Assembly (NCBI RefSeq): GCF_964194025.1
Contig: NC_134473.1
Location: 70,866,001 to 70,930,000, forward strand
From: Convolutriloba macropyga
Taxonomy: Eukaryota
Direction: 5' to 3'
DNA: 64,000 nt
This document shows, one piece after another, positions 16,649 to 64,000 of this stretch (position 1 is its first letter; each line of letters starts with the position of its first letter). Under the pieces are notes generated by a model. It was not told the origin of the DNA and searched no databases. It saw only the letters and a program-made list of their open reading frames with translations. Made by a program: the position numbers and the translations under genes.

Positions 16649-19600
16649 TTAAGTGTTTGTTCCGAGAAGGACATCACGAAAAAGTGATACTTTGGTCCTC
16701 CCCAATGCTTTTGTAAGTGTGTCTGCCGGCATGCGATCGGTAGGTAAGTAGTTTAGCTCTAATAGTCGACTTTCGACTAAATTCCGAACGAAGTGCACTT
16801 TTAATGAAAAGTGCTTTGTCTTTCCGTGATTCATCGAATTTTTACTAAGAGCAATACAAGCTTGATTGTCTACAAAGACGTTTACTGGCTGCTGGATTTC
16901 TAAATCTAATTCTCGTAATAGGTTAACTAAATGTACTGCTTCTTTACTGGCCTCTACTACGGCGTTAAGCTCAGCCTCAGCTGTTGAAGTAGATACACAC
17001 TTTTGTAACTTGCTAGCCCAACTGATTGCACCTGAACTATTATTAAGTTTAAAACAAAAACCACTTGTACTTTTTCTATTGTCTATGTTGCCTGCCCAAT
17101 CTGAGTCTGAAAATCCTGTTAACTCCAGTTTCTCACTTTTTCTAAAAACCATCTTCTCTGATTTTGTACCTTTTAGGTAACGTAAACACCCTTTTGCCGC
17201 ATTCCAATGTCGCCTTCCAGGATTTTCAACAAACGAACTCAATAAATTGGCTGCGTGCGCAATATCTGGTCTACTTGTTAATGCCAAATAGTTCAAACAT
17301 CCCACTATACCCCTATAATCACACGATTGCTTTTCTCTATGCTCATTGCTGCCGATTTCTGGTGAATCTAATTTTGATAGTTTCAGGCTAACATCTAAAG
17401 GTGTTTCCAGTGTCTTTGTTTCGCTCATGTTAAATTTCTCAAGTAATTTTTCTACATATGCTTCTTGGCTTAGCATAATTTCGTTTTGTGTTCGCTCAAT
17501 TTTTATATTTAAGAACCAGCTAAGATCTCCATAACTGCTAATTTGAAATTGCTCACTAACTTTAGTTTTAAAGTTTTCACAAAAGTCTTCCTGCAATCCT
17601 AATATCACCATATCATCTACCCAAAGACACACTAATCCTTCTATACCATTTTCTCCTTTCTTTATGAAAAGACACTCATCTTGAATAGCCGGCGTGAAAC
17701 CTAATTGGTTGAGAAAAGTTTTGATTGTTAAGTACCAATTTCTACCGGACTGTTTCAAACCATATAAACTTTTCCTCAGCTTACAAATTAATGGATTTCC
17801 TTGCTTGTCAAACTTTTCAAACCCTTCGGGCTGTTGCATAAAGATTTCTTCTTCGATGTCAGCGTTTAAGTATGCTGTTTTGATATCCATTTGTTTTAAC
17901 TCGGTGTTTTTAAATACTGCGTAGCTTATCAGTACTCGAATTGTTGAGAGGCGTGTTGTTGGTGAGTAGGTTTCGTTGTAATCCCGACCTGGATCTTGGC
18001 TAAATCCTTTTGCTACGAATCTTGCCTTATACCTTGTTATCTCACCACTAGGACCAAACTTAAGAGCAAAGTGCCAGCGGCTACCAATGGGTTTATTTCC
18101 TTTGTTCTCTACCAGTTCCCAAACATTATTTTCCACTAATGAGTTGTATTCTAACTTCATTGCCTCGTACCAGTTTTTATCCCTAATTGCTTCATCAATG
18201 GACTTAGGTAGCAATTCGTTGTTAACAATTTCACCAAGGAAAGCTACCGGGTTTAAATCTCTATCACCATCTGAATGATGCTTGTTGACTATCTCCTCCT
18301 TCTTTTCTTTGACTTCAATAAACATTTCGTTTTCGTTGAAAGTTACATTGCGAGATTTTCTAACCTTAAAGACCCCTTTGTCATTTGGAGTACCTACCAG
18401 ATAAGTCTTACTATTGTCTGAAGACCCTAAGAATATTCCTTTTTGAGAAGTTCTATCAATCTTACCGCGAAAATTTTTTTCAACGTGAACGAAAGCTGAA
18501 CAACCAAACACTTTGATAGATTCTAAGTTAGGTTTCTTCTTGTACATTGCCTCAAAAGGTGTCTTCTGAATACCTGAATGGAAACAAAAATTTTTAATCT
18601 CACTTGCCATGTTAAGCGCATATGGCCAATACTCTTTTTCTAAACCTGACTGCTCTAAAAGACATCTAGCCATTGGGGTTATTGTCCCCCAATTCCTCTC
18701 AACCTTTCCGTTTTCTTGTGGTGTATACGGTGCCGAGAACTCAAGCCTAACGCCTTTTCGTCTACATAATTGTTTTATGTCATTTGACACATATTCCCCT
18801 GCACCGTCACAAACTAAGGTTCCTGGTTGTCCTATGTCTGCAAAGAACTGTTCAACTTTTTCAAAGGCCTCGTCCCTTGTCCTCAAAAAATATAGTTTCT
18901 GATATCTGCTAAAACTATCCACGAACCCTATTGCATACCTATGACCATCAACCGCTTCCGGTTGGATGGGCCCTAATATGTCGGTATGAACAATTTCTAA
19001 GACTTCACTTGCTCTTGTTTCTGAGTCTCTTGGTACTGGAAGTTTCTTTGATTTATTTAGCTGACATATTTCACAGTTTGCTAAATCATGCTCGTTTACT
19101 TTTAGCCCCACTGCGTGAACTTTTAATTTGTATATGTCCTCAACATTGTTATGACCCAAACGCTTATGCCACAAACTAAGGGGATCTCCATTTGCTAAGT
19201 TGCACTGCTCACCGTAATCAATGTTGTGCCAGATAAATAAACTATCTCTTTCCTCGAAAGGGAAAACTGTTCCGTTCTTGGTCCGTATTTCTAAAGTCAC
19301 ACCAAAGACGACCTCATTGCCTGTTGCTCTAAGTTTTGACACTGATATAAGATTCCTTGTGTTTTTGGGAACAAGCAACGCATTATTTAATCTTATTTTT
19401 CGCGCTAAACCATTGGAATCCAAAACCCTAATTTCAACTGTTCCTTTCCCACTAATTGAACTTTTACTGTTGTTTGCATTAGTGATGGTACCAGAATACT
19501 CCTTGTCTATATCTATGAATAAACTTTCATCTCTAATCATATGACTGGTAGCACCTGAGTCTAAAACTAGCTCATTTGCAAGGTTGTTTTCCGACGTTTG

Positions 19601-20521
19601 AAAGAAGGAAAAGATCTCTTCTTCTTCTTCTTCTTCTAAATTCTGCTCCTCAACTAAATTTTGCGTGCCCCTCTGGTTGGTTCTCCTGCTTTGACTTACA
19701 AACCTTTTCTCATATTTCTGTTGTTTTCCACAAAATTTAGCTATATGTCCGTGCTCACCACACTTAAAACATTTCATTTGAGAAGCTTTGGTTTGTTCAG
19801 GAATCGTTTTCTTAAACCTACATTCTTTTGCGATATGTCCCATTTTCTGGCAGTTGAAACATTTCCGTTCCTTATTAAAGAATACGCTCTCTGTTTTGGT
19901 TTTTACATTTTCATTATCGAAGTTTATCAGGTCTCGTTTTATTTCCTCTAGAGTTTTCTCGTCTTTGCTGTATTTCACGAGTGTTGCGAAATTTTCATAT
20001 TCCTTCGGGAGCCCTTTTAGAATTATTGAGACAAACATTTGTTCACTAATTCCTTCATTCACTAGTGTTAAGTTGTATTGCATATCATCTGCTCTGGTTA
20101 GATAATCTACTATACTCTCACTTGAAGTCTTCCTAAGGCTAGTTAATTGCGCTATCAATTTGTGTAGCTGGGGTCTCTCAAAACTTTTGAAGCGTTTACA
20201 CAGTACATCCCAAGCTCTGGTGCCATCACCCTTATGTGGTCTAAGAAAAAGAACTGATGTTTTGTCTAAAGCCTGAACCAACTCGTACCACAATGTCTTC
20301 TTTTTCTCTTCTAATTCTTCCCTCCCCTTTTCTATAGCTTGCCTACGTTGCTCCTCCGAAGAATTATTTCTAACAGCTTGCACATAATCTAGATAGGTGG
20401 CTTCTCCACTAAGAACTTTACCAAGTTTTAAAGAGTGCATACGAGCCTCAAACTGTTCAGCAAAATACAAGAAATCATCTTCACGCCCGCTGAATACCAA
20501 TCTTTCTAATTTTGAGCTCAT
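16649..20521 (-). CDS. Copia Gag-Pol polyprotein, 1290 aa
   Basis: Two CCHC knuckles (CFNCQKMGHIAKEC, CFKCGEHGHIAKFC); protease LDSGATSHM; WHKRLGH..CEIC; integrase HTD..CDGAGEY..ENGKVER; RT KSLYGLKQS, WVDD; RNase H DSDWAG, TAEAE, DNQA, ADTLTK. Confidence 0.99.
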   Translation of the reverse strand: MSSKLERLVFSGREDDFLYFAEQFEARMHSLKLGKVLSGEATYLDYVQAVRNNSSEEQRRQAIEKGREELEEKKKTLWYELVQALDKTSVLFLRPHKGDGTRAWDVLCKRFKSFERPQLHKLIAQLTSLRKTSSESIVDYLTRADDMQYNLTLVNEGISEQMFVSIILKGLPKEYENFATLVKYSKDEKTLEEIKRDLINFDNENVKTKTESVFFNKERKCFNCQKMGHIAKECRFKKTIPEQTKASQMKCFKCGEHGHIAKFCGKQQKYEKRFVSQSRRTNQRGTQNLVEEQNLEEEEEEEIFSFFQTSENNLANELVLDSGATSHMIRDESLFIDIDKEYSGTITNANNSKSSISGKGTVEIRVLDSNGLARKIRLNNALLVPKNTRNLISVSKLRATGNEVVFGVTLEIRTKNGTVFPFEERDSLFIWHNIDYGEQCNLANGDPLSLWHKRLGHNNVEDIYKLKVHAVGLKVNEHDLANCEICQLNKSKKLPVPRDSETRASEVLEIVHTDILGPIQPEAVDGHRYAIGFVDSFSRYQKLYFLRTRDEAFEKVEQFFADIGQPGTLVCDGAGEYVSNDIKQLCRRKGVRLEFSAPYTPQENGKVERNWGTITPMARCLLEQSGLEKEYWPYALNMASEIKNFCFHSGIQKTPFEAMYKKKPNLESIKVFGCSAFVHVEKNFRGKIDRTSQKGIFLGSSDNSKTYLVGTPNDKGVFKVRKSRNVTFNENEMFIEVKEKKEEIVNKHHSDGDRDLNPVAFLGEIVNNELLPKSIDEAIRDKNWYEAMKLEYNSLVENNVWELVENKGNKPIGSRWHFALKFGPSGEITRYKARFVAKGFSQDPGRDYNETYSPTTRLSTIRVLISYAVFKNTELKQMDIKTAYLNADIEEEIFMQQPEGFEKFDKQGNPLICKLRKSLYGLKQSGRNWYLTIKTFLNQLGFTPAIQDECLFIKKGENGIEGLVCLWVDDMVILGLQEDFCENFKTKVSEQFQISSYGDLSWFLNIKIERTQNEIMLSQEAYVEKLLEKFNMSETKTLETPLDVSLKLSKLDSPEIGSNEHREKQSCDYRGIVGCLNYLALTSRPDIAHAANLLSSFVENPGRRHWNAAKGCLRYLKGTKSEKMVFRKSEKLELTGFSDSDWAGNIDNRKSTSGFCFKLNNSSGAISWASKLQKCVSTSTAEAELNAVVEASKEAVHLVNLLRELDLEIQQPVNVFVDNQACIALSKNSMNHGKTKHFSLKVHFVRNLVESRLLELNYLPTDRMPADTLTKALGRTKVSLFRDVLLGTNT

Positions 20522-21302
20522 TGTTAGGCCTGTCTTACTTTCGTTTATTTTCCGTTCGTCTCAAATTAACACTTTAGCTTTAATTGTTCCCTACCGAAAC
20601 AAAGACTATGTCCTTTGTTTTTCTAAGCTATTACTGCTCTAGGTAAATATTCTTTTGTAACAAGGGTCGGGCTGTGAAAAATCTTGTTCGGACTTAGATC
20701 AAAACTGCTTTCCTTTCTACGCGTGTTTGAATCTGTTGCCTGTTGGTGGCTGTGTTATAGGGCGACGAAGCGGTGAGTCGTTATGTTTGTGTATCAAAAA
20801 AATGCTTTATAGCACCAGGTTAGCACTTGTTGTAATATGGTAGCACTTGTAAGAAAAAAAACACTAAGCAAAAAGAGTTTGGTCGACTAAATTAATCTAG
20901 AAGTTGGTGTTCTGTTCGAGTTCTGTAATATCCTTGACAAAATCGAAAGCAGGACATTGACATTGAGCCAGGGTTTTTCTTCCGCGATTAAGCACGATGA
21001 GGATACCAACACCCTCCGAGGATAATGTACTCGAACCCTAATCCTAGTCCTATTTAAGAAATGTTTTACCACCAACTTTTGTGTCTTTCGACCAAACTTG
21101 TATCTTACAGAAGCACAGCACACACAATTGAAAATGAAACAGTTGTTTAAGCTGAGCTGTTCTCAGCTATACTAAGCAATCCTGGTTCCCCGACAGCTCT
21201 GTTATACAATTGAACCTCCGCGCTCCTTTTTGATTCCCCACAACAGCTCCACTCACTCTTCTTCACAAGCAGAATCCACTGCTTAGCTACACACACTTAG
21301 CA

Positions 21303-58496: not shown

Positions 58497-58971
58497 CTGA
58501 ACGAAGATTTCCGTCTGCTTAATAATAACACGACAAAGTTGTCATACAAATTAAAGGTTTTTTTTAAAATAATGTAGCAGTAAAAATACTGGATATACAC
58601 CTCCAGCCAATCACAGACTGAGAAGACACTCTTCTCTTTTATATAGAGAGAACTGAACTATAGTCAGTCTAATAGAGTAGCTACACGATGCGTACACCTC
58701 TGACTCCGGTGTTAACTCTTTTTTACATCGTTATAATTGAAGTTTAACTTCAGTGTTTTACCAAGTCGGTTAGTCAGAGAGATATAGGTAAGCCTACTTC
58801 GCGCGCAGAAATAAGTAGCCCTAGCTCTTTATAGTTTAAGGCTAAAAAAGTAGCCCACTTTGGGTCTGCCTTACCTGGTGCGACCAGTGAGTTAACAAAC
58901 TCTAACTATAGAAAGAACTCACACAAAACACATTATTCTCTTTTGAGAAATAAACTTAGAAATAGTTTATA

Positions 58972-59776
58972 GAATATATTAATTTTTCTTCATTTAAAAT
59001 TTAGAAAAACGGGGAATACAAACCCAACAAAAACAAAGAACAAACTGAGAAAATGAACCATCCAATGGTCAAACTTCCTCAAATACAGACACACACTCTG
59101 ACGAAATAAAATTAGCTGTTCTTACACAACAGAGAAAACGTTTACAACGTGACATTTCATCCTTTGAAGTTAAACACTATCCACACCAAGAAGAAAAACA
59201 AATCTACTTCTAAACATAGCAAAACAACTCAAAAATCACTATTTTGTAGCAGAGCAACAGCGTCTCTTTTCTTTACCAGATAAAGCATCACAAGTTTCAC
59301 GAACAGCGTTTCTCCCATATCTAATTGAAATTTTTGGAGCTCAGCTCACAAAAGGCTCGATTCTTTCTCTTGTGAATATATTAATTTTTCTTCATTTAAA
59401 ATTTAGAAAAACGGGGAATACAAACCCAACAAAAACAAAGAACAAACTGAGAAAATGAACCATCCAATGGTCAAACTTCCTCAAATACAGACACACACTC
59501 TGACGAAATAAAATTAGCTGTTCTTACACAACAGAGAAAACGTTTACAACGTGACATTTCATCCTTTGAAGTTAAACACTATCCACACCAAGAAGAAAAA
59601 CAAATCTACTTCTAAACATAGCAAAACAACTCAAAAATCACTATTTTGTAGCAGAGCAACAGCGTCTCTTTTCTTTACCAGATAAAGCATCACAAGTTTC
59701 ACGAACAGCGTTTCTCCCATATCTAATTGAAATTTTTGGAGCTCAGCTCACAAAAGGCTCGATTCTTTCTCTTTGT
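58972..59776 (+). repeat. Tandem duplication, 2 x 402 bp, inside the LTR element
   Basis: 58972-59373 and 59374-59776 appear identical except for one T. Confidence 0.97.
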
Positions 59777-59779
59777 GAT

Positions 59780-61000
59780 CTTCACTCAAACACATGCATT
59801 TCTCTTATATATGACACTTTATTAAACCCACTATCAGATACATTATTTGAGTAAAAACATATAACGGATTATGGTCAGAAGTTCAACCCTCGGATAGAGC
59901 GGGTGTAATTAGAAAATCTTCTTTTGATTTTCCTAAACGTCTCACTTCCGCACATAATACTGCCGCTCTACAGTCACCAAAAGAGAGCTACACAAAATCG
60001 CTCGACAAGAAGTAGAAGGTTTCACTCATCATCTTAAAATATATATAAGCTCAGTAAAAGACGCAGACTTACATTAAGAAGAGATTCTCGATTCTGTTAC
60101 AATTTTATTTTGGTACAAACACAGACTTTGGAAAAGCCTCGTAAGACACATTTTTCCAGCTAAAAAATTAATAGCTGAAACATACTCACAATTAATTTCT
60201 AAAATACCAGAAACACCACATTACATTTGTGATTCCAACTTGTTTTGCACAAAATTTCGTATACATCACAGAAGTACCTGGAAAATTATACAAAAACTAA
60301 CCATTAACCATAACAATATTAAAATAAAAATACTAAACTGCAGAAAATCAACCAATTATATGTACAAACATTCATGAGGAGACAAATACCTCTGGGAATG
60401 TATCATCGATAGAAAATATGGATACAGTACACCCACTCGGACTTTACAGCAGAACAACTCGGCATATATAGTCAACACGATTGGACTAAGTCCATCGATA
60501 AGATGAAATATAACAAATTAGTAGATGACGCCGCCCAAAAATTTGAAGTAGCACAAGCTGTAAACTTGCAGATCTTGCAAAACAAGCACAATTTCCAGCA
60601 CAATTCTCACAATTATAAAGTGAATACAATAATTGTTTTAATAAACTCTTTACTAACGGAAAGAAATGTAAACTTCGCCGTCTCGATGGACGAGAAATAA
60701 TCAACGGCAACTATTTAAAAGAATCCCGCATCGGAATTTTGTAGATACCCCTGGTACGTATTAAAAGAAATAGCCATTATTTGGACTAAATTTCATTTTT
60801 TACAGTGCCTTTATTGACTATTTCGAAGCGCATTTAATGCCTATAACCTCAAAGAACTCGTAGGTCCTAATATAACACTAGCAAAAATCATTACCTCTGG
60901 ATTTTTTGGCGTATTTTCACAAACAATATTCCATGTACTCCAATCTGATTCCTCACAGTATAAAACACCCTCCCTAAAAACGACAAAACCACTCCGTTGA
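59780..61000 (+). pseudogene. Decayed class III (gB/chuvirus-like) envelope glycoprotein, C-terminal half
   Basis: Ordered fragments: FVIPTCFAQNFVYITEVPGKLYKN*PL; QLGIYSQHDWTKSIDKMKY; YPWYVLKEIAIIWTKFHFLQCLY*LFRSAFNAYNLKELVGPNITLAKIITSGFFGVFSQTIFHVL. Resemblance recognised from memory, not by search. Confidence 0.55.
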
Positions 61001-61397
61001 TATTAACATTCCTCACTCTCAACTTGAATTGAGTCTATTGCACAGAAGTGAAAACTTCTATCAGAAATTATCTTCTCCTGTACACAATAGTTCGAACAAA
61101 CACAAAACATCCACTCTCCCCATCTATATCTACGAATGCTATGATTTACCAGTAGATTCACACAGTAAGCTGGATTTTCGCTCTTTACACTTACATACCT
61201 TTCAGCCTAACAAACGCAAACGTTCAAGAGGCATTTCACTTTCAAAGAATTCTTTCGAAAATGACCCTAATTATCAGAAAATCCCGGAAGACTTTCTTTT
61301 TAATCTGCCTAGTACTCGTATTTAACGTTTTCTTGTTTTAGCGACTCCAAAGCAGTCACTCCCATAGCACAGGAAGGAGGTTCACCAATTCCTCCAA

Positions 61398-62480
61398 ATG
61401 TCGACCCCACAGCATACGACCTCACGTTGCTGGAAATCGGCTTGCCCCCACCCAGTACCAGAACCAGTATGCAAGATGCAAACACCAGCCCTCTTCACGA
61501 TGACTCAATCCTCACCACAGCCACTGTCTGTGGACACAGAAAATTATGCGCGGGTAAACCCACTGCCATCAACCGCCACCTCATCCTCCTCTTCAGGTGA
61601 ACTCCACCTGTATATCGAAAGTGACACGAGTTCACCCTCGGTTCCTGTTCATCCTCGGTGCCCACGAAGCTCGTCACAAGAGCTACTCCTTCAAGGAGAC
61701 CAACCGGTGCCACAAGCACCTCCAGTATTTGGAGCAACCACTACCACAGCGACACCCATATCACAACCACCAACCCAGCCTACGGGTATTTCCTCTTGGG
61801 CTGATGAAGTCGCTATAGCGGAACAATCAGGCCGTTCCACGCTTGAAACAGTTATCTCAATTTGGGCATACTTTGGAATGATTCGTGGATCTCGAACACG
61901 CTCCCAACCCTTGGTGTATCCGCCACCAGTAATGCCCACGCCCTCTACACAACGACCACGTGCGCCTTCACCACGGTATGGTCCAACCATTACGCCTCTC
62001 CGACCACAAACATCCTTTCCACAACCACACCCTACAATCGACCGACATCGACGAACAATTACCCGTGCACCGACTCTTCACCCAGAAGACGCCCAAGAGC
62101 CACAGCATACGAAATCTATCCTGTGCGCTCATCTCCGATCCAGGCTTCACAATCGCCTGCTCGACACACTGCAAGCCCATATATCTACACCACCACAACA
62201 CACCCTCGAACCCACAGCTAGTTCCTGCTCTCTCGGACAATTGGAGAATGAATATGTCCAAGAAGGTCGGGATAGAGACCTCCCGTTAGAGTGTCTCCAT
62301 TTTCCAATAAACCACCGCTTCACAGATCGTTTCTGGCACCAATCCAAATACTTCTACACCATTGCGGACCGAAAGAACGACTATTTGAACACCTTTTGCA
62401 CCCGCGATGTCACTCCCTACCGTATTTACCAAAAAACGACCTCTTCTATCTGCAATTTGTTTTTGTACTTCCCACACTGA
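61398..62480 (+). CDS. 360-aa ORF of unknown function in the LTR element (Pro/Ser/Thr-rich N-part, globular-looking C-part; probably truncated)
   Basis: ORF track. Coding-like sequence continues through stops to about 63050 (ORF 62777-63013). Confidence 0.55.
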   Translation: MSTPQHTTSRCWKSACPHPVPEPVCKMQTPALFTMTQSSPQPLSVDTENYARVNPLPSTATSSSSSGELHLYIESDTSSPSVPVHPRCPRSSSQELLLQGDQPVPQAPPVFGATTTTATPISQPPTQPTGISSWADEVAIAEQSGRSTLETVISIWAYFGMIRGSRTRSQPLVYPPPVMPTPSTQRPRAPSPRYGPTITPLRPQTSFPQPHPTIDRHRRTITRAPTLHPEDAQEPQHTKSILCAHLRSRLHNRLLDTLQAHISTPPQHTLEPTASSCSLGQLENEYVQEGRDRDLPLECLHFPINHRFTDRFWHQSKYFYTIADRKNDYLNTFCTRDVTPYRIYQKTTSSICNLFLYFPH

Positions 62481-64000
62481 TGGATGTAAATAACCAGACA
62501 AACAAAGTCAACAGAGTAAAAATGTTACACTCTCTTCACAACTATTCATTTGTCCAACACCACATCCACAGGAGAAACCCACTCATCCACATGAATTCGC
62601 GTCTCCAATATGCTAACACAAAGCTCACTTCACCCTACTACAAAAATTATAGCTATTATAGCAAATTATTGTGAAGGCACTATTCGCAATTTCGGTTCGA
62701 TAAAGAACTACTTACTGTTCTCGTCACTCTATGCAAAGACCAGCCGTCCAATTCTTGATCCGATCGAATATCTCAAGTGTCTGTAGAGGGAGGAGCCACG
62801 AAGCGCATGTACAGCAACACCACCTTCAACCTCCTCTACAGGGACTGGATAACGGACAAGTTGGACAATCGCCAACCGTCAGCAGAGGAGACACAGGTCC
62901 TCAACCATCTTCTCGCGTTGCAGCCACACTGCAATGTCGACCTCTTCCCTTGTGCCCTTGCAGCTTACCTGGCACGTGATCTTGTAATTTTGGATTTTTT
63001 TCAGGGATCCTGACAATCAGGCCCTTGATTTTGAGTTCCAATATCGGACGTAGGCCACAGCCCTAAAACATCGGGCTCACAGTCCCTCAGAAACTAAAGA
63101 CTGACTAATCTTCCAAACTCACTTAAAATTTTTATTTTTTCTTTTCTTTCTATTTCACTTCCTCTACATACACTATTTCCTTTCTATATTCCTTTCTTCT
63201 TTGCCACATTTGAAGATTGGGATCAGTTATTTTCTTCTTCCTCCCGGTCGGGGCTTACTAAGTACGCATTAAATTTAAATAATAAATTTAATAGGGAAAG
63301 TAGTTCACACAGTAGCAAAAAGATGGATTTCCACCTGAAGATAAGCTGGTAAATCCGACCGGTTCAAACCTTGTATCAGATGGAGATAAACAGAAATCTC
63401 TTGGTACAAACCAGACATAGACTACAGACTACAATCGATCCTCCAATTGGCAACAAATCCTCGCTACATGACAGTGAGAGCAGTTGCATATTCTAACAGG
63501 ACTGACTTTACTGGCCAGCTAACCTTGTAACTGGCACCATCACTGGCTCTACAATCAGGCGAATCCTTCACTGACGACACTAGTCATTACCTAACTGGCA
63601 ACGACTTCAGACGACAGCACAAATCACAACCCTACTTCAAAGAGGACATAACTCTTCACTCCACCATTAAGCGAGATCGATACATCCAGCGTATTTCGGC
63701 TACAGCCCACAGATTCGGATATGAAATTCAAAACCCCGGATGGATATAGCAGTAGAAATAATAGATGTACACTTCCAGCCAATCACAGACTGAGAAGACA
63801 CTATTCTTTTTTAAATAGAGAGAACTCCACTAACTAAAGTTAGTCTAATAGAGTAGTTACACGATGTGTATACCTCGGACTCTGGGGCTAACCCTTTTAT
63901 ACATCGTTATAATTGAAGTATACCTTCAGTGTTTTACCAAGTCGGTTAGTCTGAGAGACATAGGTAAGCCTACTTCGCGCGCAGAAATACGTAGCCGTAG

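Follow-up and report, generated by a model that had tools for sequence, protein, structure and literature searches.

What remains of a retroelement whose two long terminal repeats (LTRs) enclose no polymerase, and does the sequence between them derive from a viral membrane-fusion protein? The question is raised by the right-hand end of a 64,000-nt stretch of the Convolutriloba macropyga genome (GCF_964194025.1, NC_134473.1:70,866,001-70,930,000, forward strand), which we call the window and in which positions are counted as offsets. A first-pass annotation had read 58573..64000 as what internal deletion left of an LTR element whose lineage carries a class III envelope of the glycoprotein B (gB) or chuvirus type, and our results support that reading. 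The element there is very probably a dead copy of a Ty3/gypsy family of about 16.5 kb with a predicted gB-type envelope gene (env), reduced by an internal deletion of about 11 kb.

The deletion is seen most directly by comparison with other copies. When 60000-61300 was searched against the animal's own genome (781 candidates, 40 scored), all 39 of the other scored matches began at or after about 60430, and the part upstream of 60430 matched the same loci some 10-14 kb away from the env part. In one family copy of 16,471 bp the gag and env flanks lie 11,345 bp apart. Since these flanks stand about 11 kb apart in relatives, the window copy has lost that interval. The junction was present only in the window copy (40 scored of 196 candidates), and 182-nt contigs bridge it in runs X2, X3 and X4, which come from one study and among which the source sample may be represented; on this evidence we reject an artefact of assembly. 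The deletion is real, a single event and not a mobilised derivative. It placed the beginning of gag directly before the last part of env, likely guided by the few bases that they share, and may have arisen by template switching or microhomology repair. The features of the copy, all on the forward strand, are these:

58573..58873, 5' LTR (TGTAG...CCTTA, about 301 bp; boundaries taken from the flanks of 33 LTR matches in family loci)
58876..58891, primer-binding site (PBS), 16 nt, complementary to the 3' end of host tRNA-Met(CAT) plus CCA
58972..59775, 402-bp tandem duplication of the untranslated region and the start of gag, 99.5% identical
59070..60429, N-terminal part of gag with stops and frame breaks, matching by tblastn residues 18-334 of a relative's gag-pol
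60430..60438, junction of the internal deletion of about 11 kb, with 4-6 nt of microhomology common to gag and env
60430..61322, broken env C-terminus, residues 617-889: the last ectodomain helices, the membrane-proximal region, the transmembrane (TM) helix and the cytoplasmic tail
61313..63053, remnant of an open reading frame (ORF Y) with a P/S/T-rich N-half and a conserved C-terminal region of about 290 aa, most of a relative's 632-codon gene
63054..63730, 3' non-coding region; the homologous stretch of a relative lacks triplet periodicity against 13 copies
63731..63744, polypurine tract (PPT)-like stretch CCCCGGATGGA, which precedes family 3' LTRs; a similar stretch occurs in a sister family
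63745..64000, continuing to 64049, second (right) LTR, common to a second, truncated unit

No protease, reverse transcriptase (RT), RNase H (RH) or integrase (IN) lies between the LTRs, an absence noted earlier for protease, RT and integrase: tblastn with a relative's gag-pol and integrase matched only gag residues 18-334, and Pfam searches of 12 window frames gave nothing above cutoff. The envelope claim needs dividing. Three of the landmarks that it rested on, GIYS (60461), YPWYV with the TM segment (60746) and NAYNL (60836), match residues 627, 722 and 752 of a relative's 889-codon env frame, and a fourth, IFHVL (60926), is present in the envelope protein P0159. The 'C...Y..xP' motif placed at 60150-60430 does not belong with them, the DNA there being gag (46-70% identity to gag pieces). 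Only two candidates for it turned up, YICD (60222) and CIIDR..Y..P (60399), and these belong to gag or to an out-of-frame reading of its DNA, and the family's real C..P..Y crown motifs, at env residues 527 and 541, are both deleted from this copy. The first third of the proposed envelope stretch is thus gag and the remainder env. The first-pass annotation had allowed that fuller relatives might show the segment to be gag or pol; they do so for 59070-60429, but not for 60430-61322. Env residues 1-616 are gone, with all 12 ectodomain cysteines, so this copy cannot encode a fusogen; the remnant lacks the fusion, central-helix and crown domains, and no intact set of ectodomain domains I-IV is present. 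The ORF Y remnant is damaged too, with frame breaks and a deletion of about 175 bp near 62180, and an additional ORF considered in 63050-63744 was rejected, having neither triplet periodicity nor a conserved frame.

It might be asked whether the deleted form is itself a family, non-autonomous and mobilised in trans by intact elements, that retains the env tail and ORF Y. The LTRs, PBS and PPT-like site are all kept, and such derivatives are described in the portion of PMC6431247 consulted, but the confinement of the junction to this locus among both the 40 scored of 196 and the 40 scored of 781 candidates, the broken state of the retained frames and the 11% divergence of the LTRs make such a history very improbable. 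In our reading the copy was not amplified once deleted, and it forms a tandem with another unit that derives from one source with it.

The LTRs are 89.0% identical (58573-58873 versus 63745-64049; Kimura two-parameter distance, K2P, 0.119), in agreement with the earlier estimate of about 89%. LTR pairs of eight other old family copies range from 83.5 to 95.1% identity; the window copy is a typical old member of its family. The span that had been assigned to the element is correct in its LTR pair, but the right LTR runs beyond the window and is shared with the second unit, and the pair does not delimit one simple insertion. That unit, the ORF Y remnant and the 402-bp duplication had not been noticed before. 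What follows the right LTR is a decayed PBS-like site and a second gag stub, not host DNA; the stub ends at G000:C6:70931135, 1.1 kb past the window, and no further family sequence was seen in the roughly 27 kb past it. Because the first stub has its nearest relative in the second (88% identity, against at most 85% elsewhere), at a distance (K2P 0.10) comparable to that of the LTRs (0.12), the locus is most likely a tandem of two units from one source. The LTRs could instead come from unrelated insertions joined by ectopic recombination, in which case their 11% distance would not date the copy. We consider this quite unlikely: the window 5' LTR is up to 91% identical to LTRs of other copies, against 89% to its partner, and the target duplication is unreadable at the right end, but the gag stubs, mutually closest and about as far apart as the LTRs, are as expected of a tandem from one source.

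The 402-bp duplication, being 99.5% identical, is therefore much younger than the insertion. Its junction is spanned without mismatch by a 70-nt contig of run X3, which makes an assembly artefact unlikely, and also by a 62-nt contig of run X2 whose shorter side, 30 nt, is one under the tool's 31.

To which kind of element does the copy belong? Fuller copies, whose retrieval the first-pass annotation had proposed, extend to 16,471 bp and carry gag, pol, env and ORF Y, in the order LTR-PBS-gag-protease (PR)-RT-RH-IN-[X1, probable X2, ORF X]-env-ORF Y-PPT-LTR. One of them, on contig C3 (L052/L053; G000:C3:875.4-891.8 kb, minus strand), holds gag-PR-RT-RH, IN, the intervening block, the 889-codon env and the 632-codon frame after it. 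This copy belongs to a subfamily related to that of the window, and its pol is split in two frames; its LTRs are identical over 308 of 308 bases, and the lineage therefore inserted recently.

Pfam finds Retrotrans_gag, RVT_1, RT_RNaseH, Integrase_H2C2, rve and a weak SH3_Tf2-1 in the relative. The pol order PR-RT-RH-IN holds in relatives (RT at 1460-1583, RH at 1646-1762, then IN), with weak protease matches upstream of RT in another family copy. Ty3 is the best PDB match to RT-RH (E 1e-28; the next entry, 8r0s, 6e-17), and RT has YLDD. The nearest named proteins to RT, at about 30% identity, carry the gypsy Pfam set, and close relatives occur only among unnamed proteins; in a quick RT tree built without curated references, in which the BEL row was mis-excised and has no YxDD, so that the tree does not bear on gypsy versus BEL, 16 of the 34 rows fall in an unnamed long-branch clade (Shimodaira-Hasegawa-like approximate likelihood ratio test, 99). 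DUF1759, Peptidase_A17 and DUF5641 are absent from the family in Pfam searches, and a BEL control from the same genome matches them, Peptidase_A17 just under cutoff. Nine other two-LTR copies were examined for target-site duplications: five have exact 4-bp duplications (two of these being duplicates of one insertion), two have one mismatch, and the remaining two are uninformative, one lying in an AT microsatellite and one being unreadable. The LTR 3' end is TA, not CA.

Given this domain set and order, the Ty3-like RT, the 4-bp duplications and the absence of BEL-specific domains, the superfamily is Ty3/gypsy and not BEL/Pao, a choice that had been thought undecidable. A BEL/Pao derivative, like Anakin or Tas, would account for chu-like folds being the closest viral folds to env, and BEL/Pao elements do carry chuvirus-like glycoproteins (PMC13524379 and PMC7642597, in the parts consulted), but with no BEL domains, an RT of Ty3 type with YLDD and 4-bp duplications we regard that origin as exceedingly improbable. 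Troyka was also rejected as a match, its description, in the part available, giving a 3-bp target duplication and CG..CG termini. A third related pol clade (P0335 type) was set aside; its best genome match reaches 53-54% among 45 scored, and it is probably another organism's. A BEL/Pao element is nested in a copy of the window's family at L036:2422-8420.

The gypsy element would replicate by reverse transcription primed with tRNA-Met, and its integration would duplicate 4 bp of the target. The same PBS is also complementary to Ile(TAT)-called genes with an identical acceptor stem. Long tandem arrays matching the primer tRNA 3' end are found at G000:C1:77.67-77.77 Mb and C4:55.03-55.13 Mb, the sampled loci of which hold tRNA-Thr besides tRNA-Met(CAT) and the Ile(TAT)-called genes that share its acceptor stem.

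What kind of envelope did the deleted interval encode? The relative's natural 889-codon env frame matches Pfam Monjiviricetes_fusion (PF24664) at 50.8 bits (cutoff 27, E 9e-14); the profile is matched in both the window's family and the sister family, and by all eight distant env homologues tested from a representative search (E 1e-24 to 5e-45). The relative's env has an N-terminal hydrophobic segment, 12 ectodomain cysteines (a number common to both families) and one TM segment. Structure prediction, which had been suggested earlier, gave an AlphaFold2 monomer model (44-row alignment; predicted local distance difference test, pLDDT, 64; predicted template modelling score, pTM, 0.44) that resembles herpesvirus gB and chu-like glycoproteins: all 35 rows listed by Foldseek against the PDB are herpesvirus gB (best E 4e-10), VIA returns gB (Z 10.7, root-mean-square deviation 15, 405 residues aligned), and the best BFVD matches are chu-like glycoproteins (E 1e-22). 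The model, itself a moderate one, shows the gB-like arrangement of a long-strand fusion domain, a central helix and a beta crown. The family env is supported as a predicted class III fusogen of the gB/chuvirus type. Infectivity of the lineage is plausible, as purifying selection acts on env and the frame is open in young copies; it cannot hold for the window copy. In the intact element env would enable the fusion of particles with cells nearby, the route being most likely from soma to germline as in Drosophila errantiviruses.

The family also carries genes beyond gag, pol and env. Between IN and env lie X1 (128 codons), a probable X2 and ORF X (441 codons, no AUG), and ORF Y follows env. The ratio of nonsynonymous to synonymous substitution (dN/dS), computed against the C3 copy over columns filtered at 55% DNA identity and rough because dS is near or beyond saturation, is 0.07-0.17 for env, 0.11-0.18 for the N-half of ORF Y (19 of 19 pairs), 0.03-0.12 for the C-part of ORF X, 0.04-0.13 for X1 and 0.04-0.09 for RT; overall, X1, ORF X, env, ORF Y, gag and RT fall at about 0.03-0.2, and the X2 frame at 0.2-0.75. 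Non-coding spacers of the family show no triplet periodicity. By these measures the accessory genes appear to be under purifying selection. That selection is strong on ORF X (L052:8949-9998 with L053:1-271, minus strand; L068:1224-2387), which matches no Pfam family and has no AUG in the window's family or the sister family. In four of four copies of the latter, an upstream frame of 115 codons ends in a TGA and ORF X continues in frame behind it, which suggests that ORF X may be reached by read-through or splicing.

The sister family (L079/L067/L068; G000:C5:57722714-57743987) is young and 21.3 kb long, with 434-bp LTRs 99.3% identical, nearly the same PBS and the same order of gag-pol, ORF X, env and ORF Y. 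Its gag-pol frame runs for at least 2550 codons without a stop in 17 of 45 scored matches, and its env frame, of 1144 aa, has an N-terminal extension and an RNKR site. Identity between the two families is 47% in pol, 28% in env, 41% in the C-part of ORF X and 33% in the C-part of ORF Y. At L080:1540-7190, within a fragment of a non-LTR RT, an LTR and gag start of the sister family occur twice, 5.2 kb from each other and with the same flank.

The N-half of ORF Y is of low complexity, and no segment of the protein is strongly hydrophobic. A homology search returned 174 proteins, most of those listed being about 543 aa long and 31-35% identical; they belong to the sister family. Of the ORF Y matches, 73 of 80 scored genomic matches have no stop. 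Two types coexist in the genome (46 and 34 of the 80), and in two of four sister-copy comparisons the ORF Y block is 69-82% identical while the env ectodomain and LTR are 94-97% identical (L068:5200-9200 versus L071 and L078), which suggests that the block may have been exchanged between sister copies.

From its position, selection and apparent block exchange we lean slightly towards ORF Y being an intracellular accessory factor at the host interface, most likely translated from a subgenomic or spliced RNA. Alternatively, ORF Y and env might have been acquired in one capture from a negative-strand RNA virus, ORF Y being one of its structural genes (nucleoprotein, phosphoprotein or matrix). ORF Y does abut env, a disordered N-half with a folded C-domain resembles viral P proteins, and in some chuviruses G is followed by N; but Pfam, PDB and Atlas searches give no match and IMG/VR no relative, and the ORF Y block has apparently been exchanged independently of the env ectodomain. 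We think a shared capture unlikely, and continue to prefer the accessory role.

Several points weigh against the overall reading and should be set beside the saturation of dS noted above. The window's own env pieces do not match PF24664, so that they are identified as env through homology to relatives. Confidence in the env model is no more than moderate (pTM 0.44), it scores 0.10-0.22 in TM-score against gB, and env found no match in the PDB by sequence or by profile. For ORF Y no family or function emerged from Pfam, Atlas (no usable match), NCBIfam (noise), a PDB profile search (E about 2) or IMG/VR (no relative); its predicted fold has a pLDDT of 38, to which no fold can be assigned, and its exchange is based on four pairwise comparisons. 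X1 and X2 have no detectable counterpart in the sister family.

Elsewhere in the window, the minus strand at 16649-20560 encodes a Ty1/copia polyprotein (gag, IN, RVT_2) in an uninterrupted frame of 1303 codons, which is probably a young insertion.

The window copy is a fossil, yet through it we reach a family in which a gypsy element with a gB envelope, a known kind, has conserved accessory genes as well. Among vertebrate retroviruses, the complex differ from the simple by such genes, of which few have been described in invertebrate gypsy elements. We hold it possible, with slightly more doubt than conviction, that these elements form a 'complex' invertebrate retrovirus lineage: gypsy elements of 16-21 kb that have a gB envelope and an old, conserved set of accessory genes (the AUG-less ORF X, and ORF Y without an assigned fold). 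As they contend with the host in an arms race, young copies would swap ORF Y as a cassette, which would make it comparable to the accessory genes of lentiviruses and foamy viruses. With young, open-frame copies and two divergent ORF Y types in one genome, the part that such genes play against host silencing or immunity becomes testable by observation.

How do these elements compare with systems already described? The precedents proposed at first, Tas and Anakin, are both BEL/Pao; the closest are gB-type Ty3/gypsy 'errantiviruses'. Tas has a chuvirus/gB-like glycoprotein in a BEL/Pao LTR element, whereas the family here is gypsy. Anakin, in the parts of PMC7642597 consulted, is likewise an LTR element with a chuvirus glycoprotein, again on a BEL/Pao backbone. 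Elements of Ty3/gypsy type with a gB-type env have been described across metazoans as 'ancient errantiviruses' (Chary and Hayashi, PMC13524379, drawn on here in part). The HSV/gB-type (herpes simplex virus) errantiviruses of that paper share with our families a Ty3/gypsy pol, the gag-pol-env order, a tRNA PBS, recent multicopy insertions and a gB-like env with signal peptide, cysteine-rich ectodomain and TM segment, and differ in that the elements here are 16.5-21 kb long, with 3-5 kb between IN and env and a gene after env. The word 'accessory' is not used in its main text. Its prefilter for non-insect genomes, as given in the portion available, set a pol-env gap of at most 1 kb and regions of at most 10 kb (some phyla were extended manually 3-5 kb downstream), and because of these limits such elements could be missed; their size suggests that surveys with 10-kb limits undercount enveloped elements. 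We found no description of this layout in the literature, though the supplements of PMC13524379, which list its elements, could hold relatives.

In general terms, additional ORFs placed after env, or between it and pol, have precedents (PMC6431247 and PMC5408684, each in part). Burro/GYPSM1 of planarians (PMC6431247, in the sections consulted) is also a very large gypsy element with a mononegavirus-like env and accessory coding, but its env is an in-frame part of a single polyprotein, flanked there by gag and pol, and the domains are recognisable, whereas here env and the accessory genes are separate and the latter have no assigned family. The LTR elements of bdelloid rotifers (PMC5408684, likewise in part) resemble ours in having modular extra ORFs downstream of pol; theirs are GDSL, DEDDy or paramyxovirus-type env genes, whereas ORF X and ORF Y match no Pfam family. 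Envelope capture by gypsy elements is not new, and a gB-enveloped gypsy element with conserved accessory genes is an added variation.

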